Of a DNA stretch of 64,000 nucleotides, positions 1,435 through 6,826 are shown one piece after another. Below the pieces are notes generated by a model. The model worked only from the letters and a program-made list of their open reading frames with translations, was not told where the DNA came from and made no database searches. Origin of the DNA: an uncultured Acidobacteriaceae bacterium. Lineage in GTDB: Bacteria; Acidobacteriota; Terriglobia; Terriglobales; Acidobacteriaceae. Made by a program: the position numbers and the translations under genes. The stretch covers positions 24,689-88,688 of the forward strand of contig CAWKDJ010000010.1 of the NCBI GenBank assembly GCA_963848325.1, in the 5' to 3' direction. Numbering within the stretch: position 1 is the first letter of the stretch; every line of letters begins with the position of its first letter.

Positions 1435-2385
1435 CTAAATGCCGCCCTCAAAAATCTTCTTCGACAAATACCGTTCGGCGGAATCGGGAATCATGGTCGC
1501 AACGCGCTTGCCTGGGCCCAAGCGTTTGGCTACTTGGACAGCGGCAAAAACGTTGGCACCGGCGCTCGATCCGCCTAACACGCCTTCCTGTGCGGCAAGT
1601 TTTTTTACCATGCCGAAAGCATCGACATCGGTAACCATCAATACTTCGTCACAAACCGAGGGATCGAAGTTCTTCGGCATGAAACTCGCTCCAATGCCCT
1701 CAACTTTGTGCTTGCCAGCTTTTCCGCCTCCCAGGATCGATCCTTCGGGCTCGACCGCAAACGCAAGAACCTTGGGCAGGTGGTCTTTCATGTATCGTGC
1801 GATCCCGGTAAATGTCCCCGCGGTTCCCGCCCCAATCACGATGGCGTCAACTCGTCCCTCCATTTGTTCGAAGATTTCGGCAGCTGTGGTTTCGTAGTGG
1901 TAATCAGGGTTGGCGGGGTTTTCGAACTGCGACGCCATGAACGCGTTGCTGTCGCGGGCCGTGAGATCCTTTGCTCGATTAATGGCGCCTTGCATGCCCT
2001 CGCCGTCTGGAGTGCGGGTGACCTCGGCCCCGAGGGCCCGCATAATAATGACCTTCTCCTCGGAAAAACGCTCCGGCACGAACAACGCCACTTTGTAACC
2101 ACGGTTCACACCGATCAGGGCTAGACCGATGCCGGTATTGCCGGCGGTCGCCTCAACGATCGTCCCGCCGGGTTTGAGCCGGCCATCTTTCTCAGCCCGG
2201 CGAATGATCCCGATCGCGGCGCGGTCTTTCACGCTTCCGCCGGGGTTCAGGTATTCGAGCTTGGCGTAGACTTCGGCTGCGCCAACCGGCACAACGCGCT
2301 TAAGCCGAAGCATGGGGGTTTCTCCGACGAGTTGAGTGATATCGTCGGAAACTTTCAGGCGGGTAGGCTCAATAGTTTTCTGCAC
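1435..2385 (-). CDS. cysK: cysteine synthase / O-acetylserine sulfhydrylase family (CysK/CysM/MccA-like, PLP fold type II)
   Basis: Motifs 'GETPMLRL', 'LNPGGSVKDRAA', 'EATAGNTGIGLA' and C-terminal 'GGSSAGANV' align with CysK. The six-frame ORF extends to 2652, but that extension crosses the island boundary at 2424 and is not CysK-like. I placed the start at GTG 2385, which gives an 'MQKTIEPTRLKVSDDITQLVGETPMLRL' N-terminus matching E. coli CysK. An ATG at 2313 with a GGAGA Shine-Dalgarno is the alternative. Confidence 0.75.
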   Translation of the reverse strand: MQKTIEPTRLKVSDDITQLVGETPMLRLKRVVPVGAAEVYAKLEYLNPGGSVKDRAAIGIIRRAEKDGRLKPGGTIVEATAGNTGIGLALIGVNRGYKVALFVPERFSEEKVIIMRALGAEVTRTPDGEGMQGAINRAKDLTARDSNAFMASQFENPANPDYHYETTAAEIFEQMEGRVDAIVIGAGTAGTFTGIARYMKDHLPKVLAFAVEPEGSILGGGKAGKHKVEGIGASFMPKNFDPSVCDEVLMVTDVDAFGMVKKLAAQEGVLGGSSAGANVFAAVQVAKRLGPGKRVATMIPDSAERYLSKKIFEGGI

Positions 2386-2423
2386 ATTACAGGTTACGGA
2401 AGCCGGGTGGAAGGCGTCAATTG

Positions 2424-2453
2424 CACCAAAGTTTGGGTAGTGGTTCAGTTTGA
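2424..2453. repeat. left terminal inverted repeat of the 3.2-kb island (caccaaagtttgggtagtggttcagtttgaa)
   Basis: The reverse complement of 5633-5663 matches 26 of 28 positions (one mismatch, one 1-nt indel). Each copy contains the near-palindrome CCAAAGTTTGG. Confidence 0.6.
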
Positions 2454-2500
2454 AATTCCACAGGCTAGCATTCGGCTTCGGCCTGTGGGAAACTGTCGGC

Positions 2501-2710
2501 ATGGCAAACAAACCCAAGATGTACGTCATCAAGAGGGACGCGAGCGGCAACGCGATTTCCGGCAATTGCTCTACGTGTGGACGGCTCTTCCTGTTTGAAG
2601 ATACGCCAGAAGGCAGACGGATAGAAAAAGCCTTCGAGACGCATGAATGCAAGCGGCTGGACGAAAGCCAGAACGCCTTGCGCGTCGTGAGAGAAGCTAC
2701 CGAGGACTAA
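2501..2710 (+). CDS. small hypothetical Cys/His-containing protein (69 aa from ATG 2501; ORF track starts at 2450)
   Basis: Open frame just inside the left inverted repeat: 'MANKPKMYVIKRDASGNAISGNCSTCGRLF...ETHECKRL'. No clear Shine-Dalgarno. Convergent with the phage-like gene, with a 4-bp overlap of stops. Confidence 0.3.
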   Translation: MANKPKMYVIKRDASGNAISGNCSTCGRLFLFEDTPEGRRIEKAFETHECKRLDESQNALRVVREATED

Positions 2711-3732
2711 TCAGCAGCTTTTATCGTTGGTAAGTAAAGCCTCAGTTGCACTGGGGATTTACCGTACATCTCGGCCATTTTGTCGCGCAATTCCCGCATT
2801 GTCTGGCAGGTCTTAGCGACACCAATTAACGTGAAAATGTGCTGGACCAGCCTCCGCAAGCCGTACTGCTCCGTCAGCCATTGATGCCAATTTCGTCCCT
2901 TTTGCGGATGTGGTTTATTGTCCTTCAACCACTTGCAAACATCGGCGTCTAGGTACGAATAAACAAGCTCCGTAACTAGAATCCCCCAGTATTTCGGTCG
3001 TTGAGTCACTGTACCTTTCCAATTTGTCAGCCTAGCAAATTCTATCCAAAGCTCTTGCGGGAAGGTGCTTTCCCAGTCTCGCATTTCCTCCGCCAAGTAA
3101 GCCTTTAACTTCACGCGCAATGCATCAACCGCCCTGTCGTACTGGTATCCGGTTGCTTCATCAATAAGCGCATCCAGCCCGACCTTCGCGCAAGCTGCCA
3201 GAAGAAAACTTGCACGCATGGCCATTTGCTTTTGACGGTCAGTGAGCCTGACCGCATTACCCGTGAGACTGGCTTCCATCGCGGTGACGAACCCACGCCA
3301 TACCTCGATTGCAAGATCGGCTGGCAGACCTTTAACGTCGCGCTCGAGTCCCTCTACTTCCGGCAACGAAAAGGCCACCATTCCCTCGAGCACCATGTCT
3401 ATGTTAATAAAGGGTTTAAGGGATGAAACCCCAAGATATTTCTCGAGGTCACCACCGCCTTTGATTCCTGTCAGAGATTCGGTATATGCAGTTCTCCCGA
3501 TTACGCGCTGCCCGGTGTCCAGCACATAGCAAGGAATCTCCGAACCGACCAGAGGGAGTACACCTTTGTAAAGCGCGGTCGGAAGTTTATGTTCTGGCAA
3601 TCGAACTAACTTGCCCTTCCGGTTCTTCCATCTGGCCGATGCAGCCTTTGAAGCTCGAGCACTCCGCTGTTCCGGCGTCATCGACTCCGCTAGAACAATA
3701 GCTCCTTTTGCCTTCCCGGTAACTTCTTCCAT
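2707..3732 (-). CDS. phage-associated protein of unknown function (possibly P63C/antirepressor-like; unverified)
   Basis: 341-aa ORF with ATG at 3732 preceded by an AGTGAGG Shine-Dalgarno. Lower-GC composition. The N-terminal basic stretch 'SARASKAASARWKNRKG' is typical of phage proteins. The P63C assignment is from memory, not from a search. Confidence 0.6.
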   Translation of the reverse strand: MEEVTGKAKGAIVLAESMTPEQRSARASKAASARWKNRKGKLVRLPEHKLPTALYKGVLPLVGSEIPCYVLDTGQRVIGRTAYTESLTGIKGGGDLEKYLGVSSLKPFINIDMVLEGMVAFSLPEVEGLERDVKGLPADLAIEVWRGFVTAMEASLTGNAVRLTDRQKQMAMRASFLLAACAKVGLDALIDEATGYQYDRAVDALRVKLKAYLAEEMRDWESTFPQELWIEFARLTNWKGTVTQRPKYWGILVTELVYSYLDADVCKWLKDNKPHPQKGRNWHQWLTEQYGLRRLVQHIFTLIGVAKTCQTMRELRDKMAEMYGKSPVQLRLYLPTIKAAD

Positions 3733-3762
3733 AGAGCCTCACTTTCTATCCCTATACTTGCA

Positions 3763-4665
3763 TTTTATGCTTGCATTGTCAATAGAATACTGCTAGCATC
3801 CATGCATCATGAATCGGCTTGCTACCGACAAACGCACCGCAGTAATCGCCGCCCTAATCGAAGGCACCTCGATTAACGCCACTTGCCGCATGACAGGCAC
3901 CGCCAAGAACACAGTCTTGAAACTCCTCAAGGAGATCGGTTGCGCGTGCGCCGCATATCACAATGCCCACGTCCGCAATCTCCGCGTTCGCCGGGTTCAA
4001 GCCGATGAGATTTGGAGCTTTGTATATGGCAAAGATAAGAACCTAACGCTCGAGCAAGTCCAGAGCGGCTTGGGAAGCGTCTGGACGTGGAAGGCGATTG
4101 ATGCCGACACGAAGCTGGTTATCTCGTACACAATCGGAGATCGTGGAGCGGATACAGCGAAAGCCTTCATGCAGGACATTGCTTCGCGGGTCATCAATCG
4201 GATTCAACTAACCACAGACGGCCATCGCGTCTACGCCGACGCAGTCGAAGATGCGTTCGGCTCTGAGATCGACTATGCGATGCTGGTTAAAATCTACGGT
4301 GCATCGAACGAAAATCCCGAATCGCGCTACAGCCCCGCAACCTGCATCGGATGCCGCACTGGAGTTCTCGCAGGAAACCCCGACCCAGACCACATCTCTA
4401 CTTCATTTGTGGAGCGCAGCAATTTATCAATGAGAATGGGGATGCGCCGATTCACCCGCTTAACAAACGGGTTCAGCAGGAAAGTGGAGAACCACGGTCA
4501 CATGGTTGCGCTGTACTTCATGCACTTCAACTTCTGCCGGGTGCACAAAACCCTTCGAGTTACCCCAGCAATGGAAGCAGGGATAGCAGACCATGTGTGG
4601 ACGATTGATGAACTTTTATTTCTGCTCGACAGGAAGCCCCAGTCTGATTCGCATGGCGGGTAGCG
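3763..4665 (+). mobile_element. IS1-family insertion sequence (~903 bp) flanked by a 9-bp direct repeat ATACTTGCA (3754-3762 and 4666-4674)
   Basis: The exact 9-mer direct repeat brackets the transposase ORF. A 9-bp target-site duplication is characteristic of IS1. Removing the element in silico restores a TAG stop for the ImmA gene and a 19-bp Shine-Dalgarno-containing spacer before the downstream gene. I could not recognise terminal inverted repeats. Confidence 0.45.
3809..4663 (+). CDS. IS1-family DDE transposase (single-ORF type)
   Basis: 284 aa with an N-terminal HTH-like region. The C-terminal block 'FVERSNLSMRMGMRRFTRLTNGFSRKVENHGHMVALYFMHFNFCRVHKTLRVTPAMEAGI' is the conserved signature of IS1-type transposases (family assignment from memory). 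Confidence 0.75.
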   Translation: MNRLATDKRTAVIAALIEGTSINATCRMTGTAKNTVLKLLKEIGCACAAYHNAHVRNLRVRRVQADEIWSFVYGKDKNLTLEQVQSGLGSVWTWKAIDADTKLVISYTIGDRGADTAKAFMQDIASRVINRIQLTTDGHRVYADAVEDAFGSEIDYAMLVKIYGASNENPESRYSPATCIGCRTGVLAGNPDPDHISTSFVERSNLSMRMGMRRFTRLTNGFSRKVENHGHMVALYFMHFNFCRVHKTLRVTPAMEAGIADHVWTIDELLFLLDRKPQSDSHGG

Positions 4666-5128
4666 ATACTTGCAGACGAGCAGCTAAGCTCTCTGGATCG
4701 CGGATGCCAGCGTCTAGCAGCTGCTTAATCAGCGGAAGAGGCATAAGAATGTCCGCAGCAAGCCGATTGGCAGCGGTTTCCTCCTTGCTGGTCAATCCGC
4801 TTCTGTACATAGCGTCGTCGATCAGGTCTCCGCTTTCGAGTTTGCGGCGATGAAGAATGAAATGAGCAATCTCGTGAGCTACAGTAAATCTTTGACGGAC
4901 AAGAGAGTGGGATTCATTAACGGCAATACTGAATCCGGTAGTTGGACCGCCATTCATCGGATCGCGAAAAATCTTCCCAGACACCGAGTCAGGGAGAGAT
5001 TTTTTCCATACGTTTACACCGAGATCACTGGCAATCGCTACGACATCCACGGGAGCTTGGCGTTGATACTTGGCAATGATCTGACCAGGCGTCAAAACTT
5101 CAACTGGATTTTCCGTCGTCGCGGGCAT
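4616..5128 (-). CDS. ImmA/IrrE-family (COG2856) zinc metallopeptidase
   Basis: HExxH motif 'HEIAHFILH' in a ~170-aa protein. ATG at 5128 with an AGGGGAG Shine-Dalgarno. The last ~16 codons (SLPAMRIRLGLPVEQK) are read from inside the IS. The pre-insertion reading ends ...ARLQV-TAG. Confidence 0.8.
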   Translation of the reverse strand: MPATTENPVEVLTPGQIIAKYQRQAPVDVVAIASDLGVNVWKKSLPDSVSGKIFRDPMNGGPTTGFSIAVNESHSLVRQRFTVAHEIAHFILHRRKLESGDLIDDAMYRSGLTSKEETAANRLAADILMPLPLIKQLLDAGIRDPESLAARLQVSLPAMRIRLGLPVEQK

Positions 5129-5522
5129 CCTTACTCCCCTCTCCCGGATACTTTGCAATAGGCGTCGCTTGCTGATCCACTGATTCCAAGGGCGTTTCCA
5201 CGATACCCCCTTGTACACCATGTTTTGATGCGGTTTCAACTACCTTCGGTTCAGGGGCGGTTACCACCTGATTTCTGACCTGATCCAAGAAATCTGCCTG
5301 ATCCCGTAACCGCTGCATTGTCTTAAGCATATCGGCTGCATCAGGATATTTCTTGAGGGCTTCCTTCATGGCCTCGTCAACCCGCTTTGCAGCGGTTTCC
5401 TTCAGGGAGTCTCGAAGGCCGACGTATCCCCAGATGGCTAATGCCGCAATTCCAAGAGTGACCACTGCTAGCATAACGGCGAGCGCCGTTAGAATTATTG
5501 TAATGGCACCTTCAAAGGACAT
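5100..5522 (-). CDS. small membrane-anchored coiled-coil protein (one N-terminal TM helix, charged helical C-terminus)
   Basis: 'MSFEGAITIILTALAVMLAVVTLGIAALAIWGYV' followed by a K/E/D-rich helix. Overlaps the ImmA start by 29 nt on the same strand. The start is uncertain (ATG at 5522 or GTG at 5564). No Shine-Dalgarno seen. Confidence 0.5.
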   Translation of the reverse strand: MSFEGAITIILTALAVMLAVVTLGIAALAIWGYVGLRDSLKETAAKRVDEAMKEALKKYPDAADMLKTMQRLRDQADFLDQVRNQVVTAPEPKVVETASKHGVQGGIVETPLESVDQQATPIAKYPGEGSKDARDDGKSS

Positions 5523-5632
5523 GTGCTGGACAGCATTCGCGGCATGATAGAGTCGTTCACACACGCGAAGAAACCATACACCCTAGTGAGCCGCGAGGGC
5601 AATCGGATGCCCACTCTTGCGTGGGGGCAACC

Positions 5633-5663
5633 TTCAAACTGAACCACTACCAAAGTTTGGGGG
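5633..5663. repeat. right terminal inverted repeat of the island (ttcaaactgaaccactaccaaagtttggggg)
   Basis: Reverse complement matches 2424-2453. It lies 12 bp downstream of the VWA stop codon. Confidence 0.6.
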
Positions 5664-5674
5664 CAATAATCGCT

Positions 5675-6826
5675 CTACTGTGAATTCTCCTGGCCCGGGA
5701 AGTAGCCGGTACGAGTGCGCACGGTCAGGTTCTTATATCCCTTGGCACGGGCTTCCACGCGGATGGTGCGGTATCCGCCGACGCTGCGCGGTGTGGTCGG
5801 CTTGTAGCCGAGAGTGTATTGGCTGCGAATATCGTGGGCAATTTTGCTGCTGATCTCATCCACTTCGTCCAGTGTCCTGGGGAAAAAAGCGATTCCTCCC
5901 GTCCGCTGCGCGAGAGTCTCAAGCGCCCGGTGCGCCCGCCGGGCGCGTTCTTCGCCCAGCAGACCGATGGTATACACCGTCGGCCCGTTTTCCTGCTGCA
6001 GGCGCTGAACGGCTTCCTCCAGCGTCTCGCGGCTGGTGTTGTCTTCACCATCGGTAACCACGAACAGAACTTTTCTCTGCAGCCGCGCCTGCTTTTTCTC
6101 GTAATCGGCCGAAGCCACGATCGCGTCGTAAAGGGCCGTTCCTCCGCGGGCTTCGACTTTTTCCAGCGCCGATTTCAATAAGCTGATTTTGTCAGTGAAG
6201 GACTGGTCGAGATAGTACTCGTCATTAAAGTTGACCACGAACACCTGATCTTGCGGATTGCTCGAGCGGACGAGATTGAGCGCGGCCTTGTTGACCTTGT
6301 CGCGCTTTTCACGCATGGAACCGGAGTTGTCGATCACAATGCCCATCGCCACGGGAATGTCTTCGTGACGAAATGAGCTGATGGTCTGCTCCTTGTTGTC
6401 TTCGAATACCGTGAACGCGCTCTTGTCGAGGTTGATTACCAAGCGATTGTTCTTGGTGTCGAGAACGGTGGCGTGCAAGACCACTTCGGAGACTTCTTTC
6501 TTGAAAACGAAAACCCCATTGTCATTGGCCGGAGCTTGTTCCTGAGGCGGCTGATTCTGGCCCGGCTGGGCCTGCCCCGCTTGTCCCTGGTCCTGCGGCC
6601 GGCTCGGCGCGGGAGTAGTACCATTTTGGGGCGCAGTTTGCGGCGCGGGCTGCGACGGCGGAGTTAAAGGTTGATTTGGCGGAACGCTGCTCGCAGGCGC
6701 GCCAGACTGGCCCGCCGCTGGCGGAGGCGCGGTGTTCTGCGGCGCACTTGCTCCCTGCACCGCCGTTCCTGCACAAATTAAGAAAAAGCAAAGCAGCGCG
6801 AGAAGAGGTTCATTCCGAAGGCGCAT
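5675..6826 (-). CDS. secreted VWA-domain protein (vWFA-related Acidobacterial family)
   Basis: Signal peptide, a P/Q/A-rich linker, the MIDAS motif 'DNSGSM' and a C-terminal beta-sandwich region. Paralogous to the next gene. Confidence 0.85.
   Translation of the reverse strand: MRLRNEPLLALLCFFLICAGTAVQGASAPQNTAPPPAAGQSGAPASSVPPNQPLTPPSQPAPQTAPQNGTTPAPSRPQDQGQAGQAQPGQNQPPQEQAPANDNGVFVFKKEVSEVVLHATVLDTKNNRLVINLDKSAFTVFEDNKEQTISSFRHEDIPVAMGIVIDNSGSMREKRDKVNKAALNLVRSSNPQDQVFVVNFNDEYYLDQSFTDKISLLKSALEKVEARGGTALYDAIVASADYEKKQARLQRKVLFVVTDGEDNTSRETLEEAVQRLQQENGPTVYTIGLLGEERARRAHRALETLAQRTGGIAFFPRTLDEVDEISSKIAHDIRSQYTLGYKPTTPRSVGGYRTIRVEARAKGYKNLTVRTRTGYFPGQENSQ

Follow-up and report, generated by a model that had tools for sequence, protein, structure and literature searches.

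Positions 2436-5651 (3216 bp) of a 64,000-nucleotide stretch of DNA from an uncultured Acidobacteriaceae bacterium are very probably one intact transporter insertion sequence (IS) of the IS1 family, with two exchangeable passengers. (We refer to the whole 64-kb stretch as the window.) Transporter IS elements, or tIS, have passenger genes inside their terminal repeats and move these genes along (PMC3129680, PMC7986276, PMC9330008). In the window element, one passenger is the gene for a protein with a P63C domain and the other is a pair of genes for a membrane protein and an ImmA/IrrE-type (M78) zinc peptidase; the transposase gene lies between them. An earlier description of this region, made from the letters of the window and their open reading frames (ORFs), had instead proposed an operon of the three accessory genes that was disrupted by an IS. 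We will call it the sequence-only reading.

The boundaries of the element are given by its terminal repeats. The left terminal inverted repeat (positions 2436-2454, 19 bp, GGTAGTGGTTCAGTTTGAA) is unique in the window except for its partner at the right end, where positions 5633-5651 (TTCAAACTGAACCACTACC) are its reverse complement. (The sequence of the 19-bp repeat is GGTAGTGGnnCAGTTTGAA.) The number of matches to the left repeat that would be expected by chance in the window is 0. Just outside the repeats is an 8-bp target-site duplication, with identical copies of AAAGTTTG at 2428-2435 on the left and at 5652-5659 on the right. The repeats and the duplication enclose four genes and a fifth, small ORF. 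Deleting the element together with one copy of the duplication restores ATTGCACC-AAAGTTTG-GGGGCAAT. The rebuilt target (ATTGCACCAAAGTTTGGGGGCAAT, positions 2420-2435 plus 5652-5667) is an imperfect palindrome, 16 nt past the stop codon (5675) of a VWA gene, and may be the terminator of that gene. The insertion site would be this small palindrome, between the VWA gene and a cysteine-synthase-like gene. (The cysteine-synthase-like gene is downstream of the VWA gene and on the same strand; the insertion parted the two.) The transposase, encoded at 3809-4663, presumably recognizes the 19-bp terminal repeats and mobilizes the whole 3.2-kb segment, and every insertion would leave an 8-bp target duplication. 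We also considered a 35-nt inverted repeat (2420-2454 and 5633-5667) as a long hairpin or a long terminal repeat, and rejected it. Comparison to relatives resolves it into the 19-bp repeat, the 8-bp duplication, and the palindromic target site.

We then examined the transposase, a single ORF of 284 amino acids on the forward strand. It matches the Pfam family DDE_Tnp_IS1 (PF03400) with 39 bits, where the cut-off is 24.1. In an alignment of 18 transposases, the DDE triad (D66, D137, and E202) is conserved, and so is the IS1-type signature ERxNLxxRMxxRRxTRLTNxFSKK. Cultured relatives with 53% identity are annotated as "IS1 family transposase" by the Prokaryotic Genome Annotation Pipeline (PGAP). 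Members of the IS1 family have ends that start with GGnnnTG and target duplications of 8-9 bp. The window element has GGTAGTG ends and the 8-bp duplication AAAGTTTG. Two observations count against assigning the element to IS1. First, the score for NCBIfam's IS1 equivalog (NF033558) is 65.8 bits, which is below the cut-off of 100, so the transposase is a distant member of the family. Second, the layout of classical IS1 (insA with a zinc finger and a helix-turn-helix (HTH), insB', and a -1 frameshift) is absent. Instead, the transposase is one uninterrupted ORF across the family (274-284 amino acids), with an N-terminal HTH only and neither the InsA zinc finger nor the frameshift. This layout fits only the single-ORF subgroups of IS1. 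One IS1 subgroup in ISfinder, ISMhu11, has sizes of up to 4.6 kb, and our elements may fall within it.

Similar elements are widespread. The same terminal repeats bound 58 non-redundant complete elements from many phyla. These were pooled from two samples: a scan of species-representative genomes with P63C, which gave 509 loci (80 were fetched), and a scan of metagenomes with the 18-transposase alignment, which gave at least 594 confirmed loci. The 19-bp ends, GGTAGTGG..., with GGTAGTG, are present in the window element and in the 58 relatives, and a perfect 8-bp duplication flanks 47 of the 58. Units that have the same repeat, 8-bp duplications, and this family of transposase range from 1.7 to 6.2 kb. 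All 58 follow a common plan: repeat, small ORF, cargo slot 1, transposase, cargo slot 2, repeat. Whatever the cargo, the transposase gene lies between the two cargo positions in every member.

The contents of the two slots vary. According to Pfam, slot 1 contains P63C, Fic/DOC, a fusion of HTH_3 and Peptidase_M78, or a ClpP-like SDH protease, and slot 2 contains NYN, SocA_Panacea (with a partner ORF), DUF3800, Abi_2/HEPN, or a proteasome-like protein. (These cargo calls rest on about 20 proteins and are not a census.) One example from a cultured organism is on a plasmid of Acidiphilium multivorum (NZ_CP041717; L185:3501-5221), where slot 2, after PGAP's "IS1 family transposase", holds a RES toxin with an MbcA/ParS/Xre antitoxin. 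At several other loci, slot 1 holds a protein of 360-395 amino acids (L135:3268-4455, L147:3266-4408, L171:1791-2930, L175:1286-2365, and L186:2262-3449), with a partner ORF of 160-205 amino acids beside each. In L135, Pfam finds a fusion of an XRE-type HTH and an M78 peptidase domain, and the L186 protein is annotated as "XRE family transcriptional regulator"; those in L147, L171, and L175 were assigned only because their size and N-terminal sequence are similar. With such proteins in slot 1, this transposon family has picked up M78 peptidases in at least two forms that are unrelated to each other.

The shared plan bears on the sequence-only reading, in which an ordinary IS of about 0.87 kb split an ancestral operon that encoded the membrane protein, ImmA, and P63C. 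All three genes are indeed on the minus strand and follow each other as in this operon, the transposase lies between them on the other strand, and a GTGAGG stretch that resembles a ribosome-binding site precedes the ATG of P63C. But we found no inverted repeats or target duplication that bracket the transposase gene alone, so it is not a discrete, removable IS. (A 19-nt inverted match, 89% complementary, at 3812-3830 and 4750-4768 was tried as the IS ends, but ends placed there would sever the transposase from its start codon. One arm is at the start of the transposase and the other is inside ImmA, and the match reflects that the two proteins, on opposite strands, each contain N-R-L-A-(T/A)-D. 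It is very likely due to chance.) It is the 3216-bp unit as a whole that has its own repeats and target duplication, so the junction that had been proposed between ImmA and P63C, with 19 bp and a Shine-Dalgarno sequence, rests on an assumed IS boundary.

Homologs of P63C point the same way. There are more than 2771 of them with 60-95% identity, in several phyla. We fetched contigs for three, and in all eight contigs, an IS1-type transposase is divergent from P63C and 72-77 bp from its start. In five of the eight, a NYN gene is in ImmA's place. DNA homology between the window and these loci (including L001) runs from 4612 to 2633, so it ends exactly at the 3' end of the transposase, and these units have the window element's terminal repeat at their ends. 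More broadly, the divergent pair of transposase and P63C, with a spacer of 72-92 bp, is kept where NYN or nothing replaces ImmA. Also, ImmA and P63C were never found together in 87 other P63C loci: a search with tblastn and with a hidden Markov model of 120 ImmA homologs found no M78 gene within those elements. (The sole M78 match among the P63C loci is weak and lies outside the element, in L025.) The sequence-only reading had suggested looking for the three genes together in other genomes; the combination was not found elsewhere, which is the outcome that it had itself named as a refutation. We consider a disrupted operon to be highly improbable. Under the transporter-IS reading, the two passengers would have been acquired independently and would never have formed one operon.

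The junction between the transposase and ImmA in the window is precise. The last 10 or so codons of the transposase ORF extend beyond the usual stop of its homologs (...ELLFLLD), so that 48 nt (4616-4663) are shared by its 3' end and that of the convergent ImmA gene. The cargo junction is at exactly the normal transposase stop. We also noticed a contig from Logan (ERR11523672_3522778, or L180) that, when compared with positions 3809-5750 of the window, is 100% identical over the end of the VWA gene, the terminal repeat, the membrane gene, and ImmA. By protein sequence, however, L180's transposase (284 amino acids) is only 86% identical to the window's. Either this is a strain variant in which the transposase has recombined, or the assembly is a chimera of several copies.

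Is P63C a passenger, or is it part of the machinery of transposition? Some IS families carry a second transposition gene, and P63C could be a required accessory factor of the transposase, either as a regulator or as a target selector. A short divergent control region, in which operator-like sites are conserved, lies between the two genes, and the P63C protein looks like a DNA-binding protein. Furthermore, in about half of the 80 fetched P63C loci, this transposase adjoins P63C, in one of two orientations, and many of the 80 have the repeat pair with perfect 8-bp duplications. However, P63C was not detected in 49 of the 52 loci from the transposase-based sample that have at least 1.2 kb upstream of the transposase. 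The P63C-less loci with both ends on the contig have the same repeats and, mostly, 8-bp duplications. One relative (L100) is especially close to the window element: its segment with the end and the small ORF has 90% DNA identity to the window, and its transposase gene has 84.5% DNA identity. Where the window has P63C, L100 has Fic/DOC. Its homology to the window covers only 2436-2725 and 3860-4614, and the breaks (2725/3860 and 4614) are the borders of the slots. Because L100 has Fic/DOC in the position of P63C while the ends and the transposase are conserved, P63C is cargo rather than core. (We had considered P63C as a core gene of the element, and dropped this idea after seeing the transposase-based sample and L100.) In addition, full-length P63C proteins are found in lambdoid phages without the transposase, and the operator-like motif follows P63C rather than the transposase, as described below. 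That P63C is an accessory factor is, in our view, unlikely.

The P63C protein (341 amino acids, 2707-3732 on the minus strand) is the slot-1 passenger. Residues 209-295 match the P63C domain in Pfam (PF10546; 80.8 bits with a cut-off of 26.1, 1.2e-22), and residues 2-334 match phrog_2384 (2.9e-76). None of its sequence relatives has a solved structure, and the AlphaFold2 model is moderate (a predicted local distance difference test, or pLDDT, of 72.8 and a predicted template modeling score, or pTM, of 0.46). The protein models as a DNA binder. Between the start codons of P63C and the transposase is a divergent control region of 76 bp (3733-3808), which is part of a block that is kept in every close relative. 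It contains three TGCWAGCA-type sites that are conserved in the alignment of relatives: TGCTAGCA at 3798-3791, TGCAAGCA at 3775-3768, and a degenerate site, TGCAAGTA, at 3762-3755. At least two strict TGCWAGCA sites are present upstream of 17 of 90 P63C genes, as compared to 0.3% of random windows. The 17 include 11 of the 12 genes with at least 71% identity, several genes with no nearby transposase, and phage ST104. In elements without a detected P63C, the 7-mer of this motif is absent from all 73 regions upstream of the transposase. Since the sites are found at P63C genes and are absent at P63C-less transposases, the motif travels with P63C. We predict that P63C is a sequence-specific DNA-binding protein that probably regulates its own expression via the TGCWAGCA sites. 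This autoregulation would act in the 76-bp region that is shared with the promoter side of the transposase. A caveat is that the strict motif was found upstream of only those 17 of the 90 P63C genes. A scan for sigma-70 consensus promoters did not find any, including in 3733-3808.

Phages also have full-length relatives of P63C, in 61 records. We examined four phage-type regions, and in three of them, P63C is directly 3' of a gene for a cI-type repressor and on the same strand. These three are from Erwinia phage Midgardsormr38, a phage-plasmid of E. coli, and Salmonella phage ST104. (The cI-adjacent regions, which are of the lambdoid phage type, are L096:3183-4882, L097:3238-4900, and L099:2593-4526.) In phage 933W, P63C is in the nin region. 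In lambda, rexAB is located directly after cI. Both the site after cI and the nin region are places for accessory genes, and the position after cI hints that P63C may be expressed in lysogens.

Besides the transposase, the only conserved gene of the family is the small ORF beside the left repeat. In the window it encodes 69 amino acids from an ATG at 2501 (2501-2710, forward strand), with a zinc-ribbon-like part (CxxC...HxC) and a C-terminal DESQNALRVVREATED motif. About two-thirds of the 58 elements have a small ORF that starts about 66 nt from the same end and reads inward. These usually have an N-terminal RPRDxNQLAxxIVxEAT motif and mostly have a KGG...ARW tail. The small ORF does not match any family in Pfam. 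We noticed that the N terminus of P63C (residues 1-45, window positions 3600-3732; KGAIVLAESMTPEQRSARASKAASARW) resembles the KGG...LTPEQRSEIAKKAAxARW tail of the small ORFs (as seen in L036, L071, L111, and others). Judging from this similarity, a short basic module seems to have been shared or shuffled between them.

We then considered the passenger in slot 2. The ORF for the membrane or coiled-coil protein is listed at 5564-5100 (minus strand, 154 amino acids, with one N-terminal hydrophobic helix), but its homologs begin with MSFES..., and its probable start is the ATG at 5519, which gives 139 amino acids (5100-5519). Similarly, the ImmA ORF is listed at 5239-4616 (minus strand; Peptidase_M78 in Pfam, 2.7e-19), but it starts at the ATG at 5128. 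The resulting stand-alone peptidase of 170 amino acids (4616-5128) exactly matches the database protein P0121. It contains HEIAH and E..AN..AADILMP motifs, is a member of PF06114, and matches the capP profile of PADLOC (9e-27); there are 1268 ImmA homologs of about 170 amino acids. The two genes overlap by 29 nt (5100-5128) and GGAG...AAGG precedes the ATG of ImmA. This cassette points inward from the right end and is convergent with the transposase gene. The membrane protein has one N-terminal membrane helix, a helical or coiled-coil middle, and an acidic tail, and has no match above threshold in Pfam or other profile libraries.

The pairing of these two genes is consistent. We collected 12 loci, in seven distinct contexts, by using five ImmA homologs as well as the window's own ImmA. 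At all 12 loci, the gene upstream of ImmA encodes a homolog of the membrane protein, with 67-83% identity at the closer loci and 33-40% at the distant ones. Six of the contexts are not the window's own, and in five of these, tblastn and repeat searches found traces of the transposon beside the pair. The traces are a terminal repeat immediately upstream of the membrane gene, the final 30-90 codons of the transposase directly after ImmA (L089/90 and L091/92), or both (L181/182). In L093-95, neither a repeat nor a stub adjoins the pair, and the sole trace, a 192-bp repeat pair, is about 3 kb from it. In L183/L184, no transposon traces were detected beside the pair. The traces across contexts imply that this transposon lineage has long carried the pair as a passenger. 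(The pairs resemble free islets amid housekeeping genes, but the idea of a free cassette, unrelated to the transposon, was ruled out by the traces in these five of six contexts.) One derivative is particularly compact. In L181:3541-4627 (and also in L182), a unit of 1087 bp contains a repeat, the membrane gene, ImmA, a transposase stub (the last 40 or so codons), and a repeat. A perfect 8-bp duplication (GCAGGCCG) flanks this unit, and genes for sugar metabolism surround it. It is a transposase-less cassette that has itself moved. As for the 192-bp unit (L093:8392-8583, also in L094 and L095), it resembles a miniature inverted-repeat transposable element (MITE): it has the same terminal repeats, a long hairpin-like palindrome, and no ORF, and its flanks are partly duplicated.

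What might the ImmA of this pair act on? M78 peptidases usually act on a DNA-binding partner, as established for ImmR/ImmA and CapH/CapP. No stand-alone HTH or XRE gene was found in the element or adjoining it, using the ORF list and Pfam. Since there is no HTH partner and the constant neighbor is a membrane protein, repressor cleavage is not likely to be how this ImmA acts. Alternatively, P63C might stand in for the XRE repressor, so that ImmA cleaves P63C; the two would be coupled without being in one operon. P63C is probably DNA-binding and autoregulated, which fits this role, as does the lack of an HTH gene. But among the 87 other P63C loci there was no case of this combination, which is found only in the window, and the membrane/ImmA pair is intact without P63C in at least five other contexts. 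Also, ImmA is coupled by the gene overlap to the membrane protein, its constant partner. The functional link from ImmA to P63C that the sequence-only reading had drawn does not fit these results, and we consider cleavage of P63C to be very unlikely.

Rather, the cytoplasmic ImmA would most likely act on its membrane partner. In the membrane protein, positively charged residues follow the helix, so the helical part and the acidic tail are probably cytoplasmic and within reach of the peptidase. If ImmA acts on this tail, then the pair would be a two-part switch or a toxin-antidote pair. The idea that it is related to toxin-antitoxin or abortive-infection systems comes from the relatives, in which the same slot holds Panacea, Abi_2, and RES-Xre modules. 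By this analogy, the pair is a fair candidate for an uncharacterized toxin-antitoxin or defense-type module. A point on the other side is that PADLOC does not find any complete known defense system: only the capP and RmrA-type peptidase profiles match. The sequence-only reading had proposed a three-gene regulatory, abortive-infection, or defense module. The part of this that stands is the membrane/ImmA pair, which recurs with 33-83% identity of the membrane protein; P63C is not part of it.

Other claims of the sequence-only reading agree with what we found. All of its ORFs are in the ORF list where it had placed them, the element does lack an HTH gene, and the 29-nt overlap and the GGAG...AAGG stretch support its coupling of ImmA to a coiled-coil protein with a single transmembrane helix. 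It had also described the region as acquired, and we agree. The GC content falls to 0.51-0.53 over 2500-5500, as compared to 0.56-0.60 outside. The lower GC would fit a decayed immunity region of a prophage or integrative element, in which ImmA was the anti-repressor protease, P63C was the antirepressor, and the repressor was lost. Both ImmA and P63C are also of a kind that phages and integrative elements typically carry. However, the region is only 3.2 kb and is bounded precisely by the transposon ends and the duplication. Within it, we found no integrase, att-type repeat, tRNA, or other phage genes, and it is flanked by housekeeping-type genes. Nor did we find close relatives of ImmA in viral contigs. 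We give almost no credence to a decayed prophage, and the transporter IS remains our explanation for how the region was acquired.

In the rest of the locus, Rfam reports no RNA element in 2200-5900, and the number of terminators is at chance level. The listed ORF for the cysteine-synthase-like protein (405 amino acids, 1435-2652 on the minus strand) has a TTG start within the transposon and crosses the terminal repeat. The true start of this gene must be below 2428, with the N-terminal extension being an artefact of the ORF finder.

Taking the cargo together, the pool of passengers would be dominated by toxin-antitoxin and abortive-infection types, and these passengers probably help the element to be retained, through addiction or phage defense. 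A broader proposal is that these elements are IS1-related mini-transposons whose family is large and which carry toxin-antitoxin or defense modules, one at a time, from phylum to phylum. In this proposal, a family-specific small protein, encoded about 66 nt from one end, is active in transposition or its control, and ImmA with a membrane protein in place of a repressor is a new kind of two-gene module, a phage-triggered or addiction switch. We offer this only tentatively, as it may well be wrong in whole. If the pattern of cargo holds across a full census, then small IS1-type elements belong, along with Tn7-like transposons, integrons, and prophage hot spots, among the carriers of defense and addiction genes. 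With their size of 2-6 kb and their clean ends, their cargo is easily delimited, so small defense or toxin-antitoxin modules should be easy to discover in them. P63C is widespread in phages, and the operator-like site is a direct handle on its function. The membrane/ImmA pair offers a chance to test an M78 peptidase that would work without a repressor partner. And the window corrects an annotation trap: a transposase between accessory genes mimics an operon that was hit by an IS, but is actually part of one transposon.

How does the element compare to known systems? It resembles other tIS in that P63C, the membrane protein, and ImmA lie between the repeats, the duplication flanks the whole, and the cargo differs among close relatives. 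It resembles IS1 in its DDE transposase, with the IS1 profile and signature, and in its ends and 8-bp duplication. Unlike known IS1 or tIS, this family has two cargo positions that flank the transposase gene and a conserved small ORF beside one end. Also, its cargo resembles toxin-antitoxin or abortive-infection modules instead of resistance genes. A search of the literature turned up no description of such a plan or such cargo in an IS1-type group, and nothing useful on ISMhu11. Thus, the element is a transporter IS of a known kind, in a form that was undescribed in the literature we searched; we do not claim a new family.

The passengers also have known counterparts. The window's ImmA is a small M78 peptidase with HEXXH and a match to the capP profile, so it resembles the peptidases of ImmR/ImmA (from ICEBs1, with COG2856 and XRE) and of CapH/CapP (from the cyclic-oligonucleotide-based antiphage signaling system, CBASS). 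But unlike ImmR/ImmA, it has no XRE or HTH partner, and its constant neighbor is a translationally coupled membrane protein. And unlike CapH/CapP, it is not accompanied by capH, by CBASS, or by another PADLOC effector operon. The P63C genes of lambdoid phages (L0095 in 933W, orf23 in ST104, and ORF58 in Midgardsormr38) belong to the same full-length family and are 24-51% identical to the window's P63C, but the window's P63C rides in a transposon. For the P63C family as a whole, we found no member with a tested function in the literature.

As carriers of variable cargo, the nearest conceptual parallel to these elements is the Tn7-like transposons, whose variable cargo is dominated by genes for defense, toxin-antitoxin systems, and conflicts between mobile elements (PMC8649781). 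The transposases are unrelated, with one IS1-type DDE protein instead of TnsABCD. The elements of the window's family are also tiny by comparison (2-6 kb), with one or two small modules each and no target-selector genes. Finally, the 1087-bp unit in L181 and the 192-bp pair in L093 are derivatives of the window's family that resemble mobile insertion cassettes and MITEs, respectively. The copy in the window differs from them in being autonomous and in having a transposase gene of full length.

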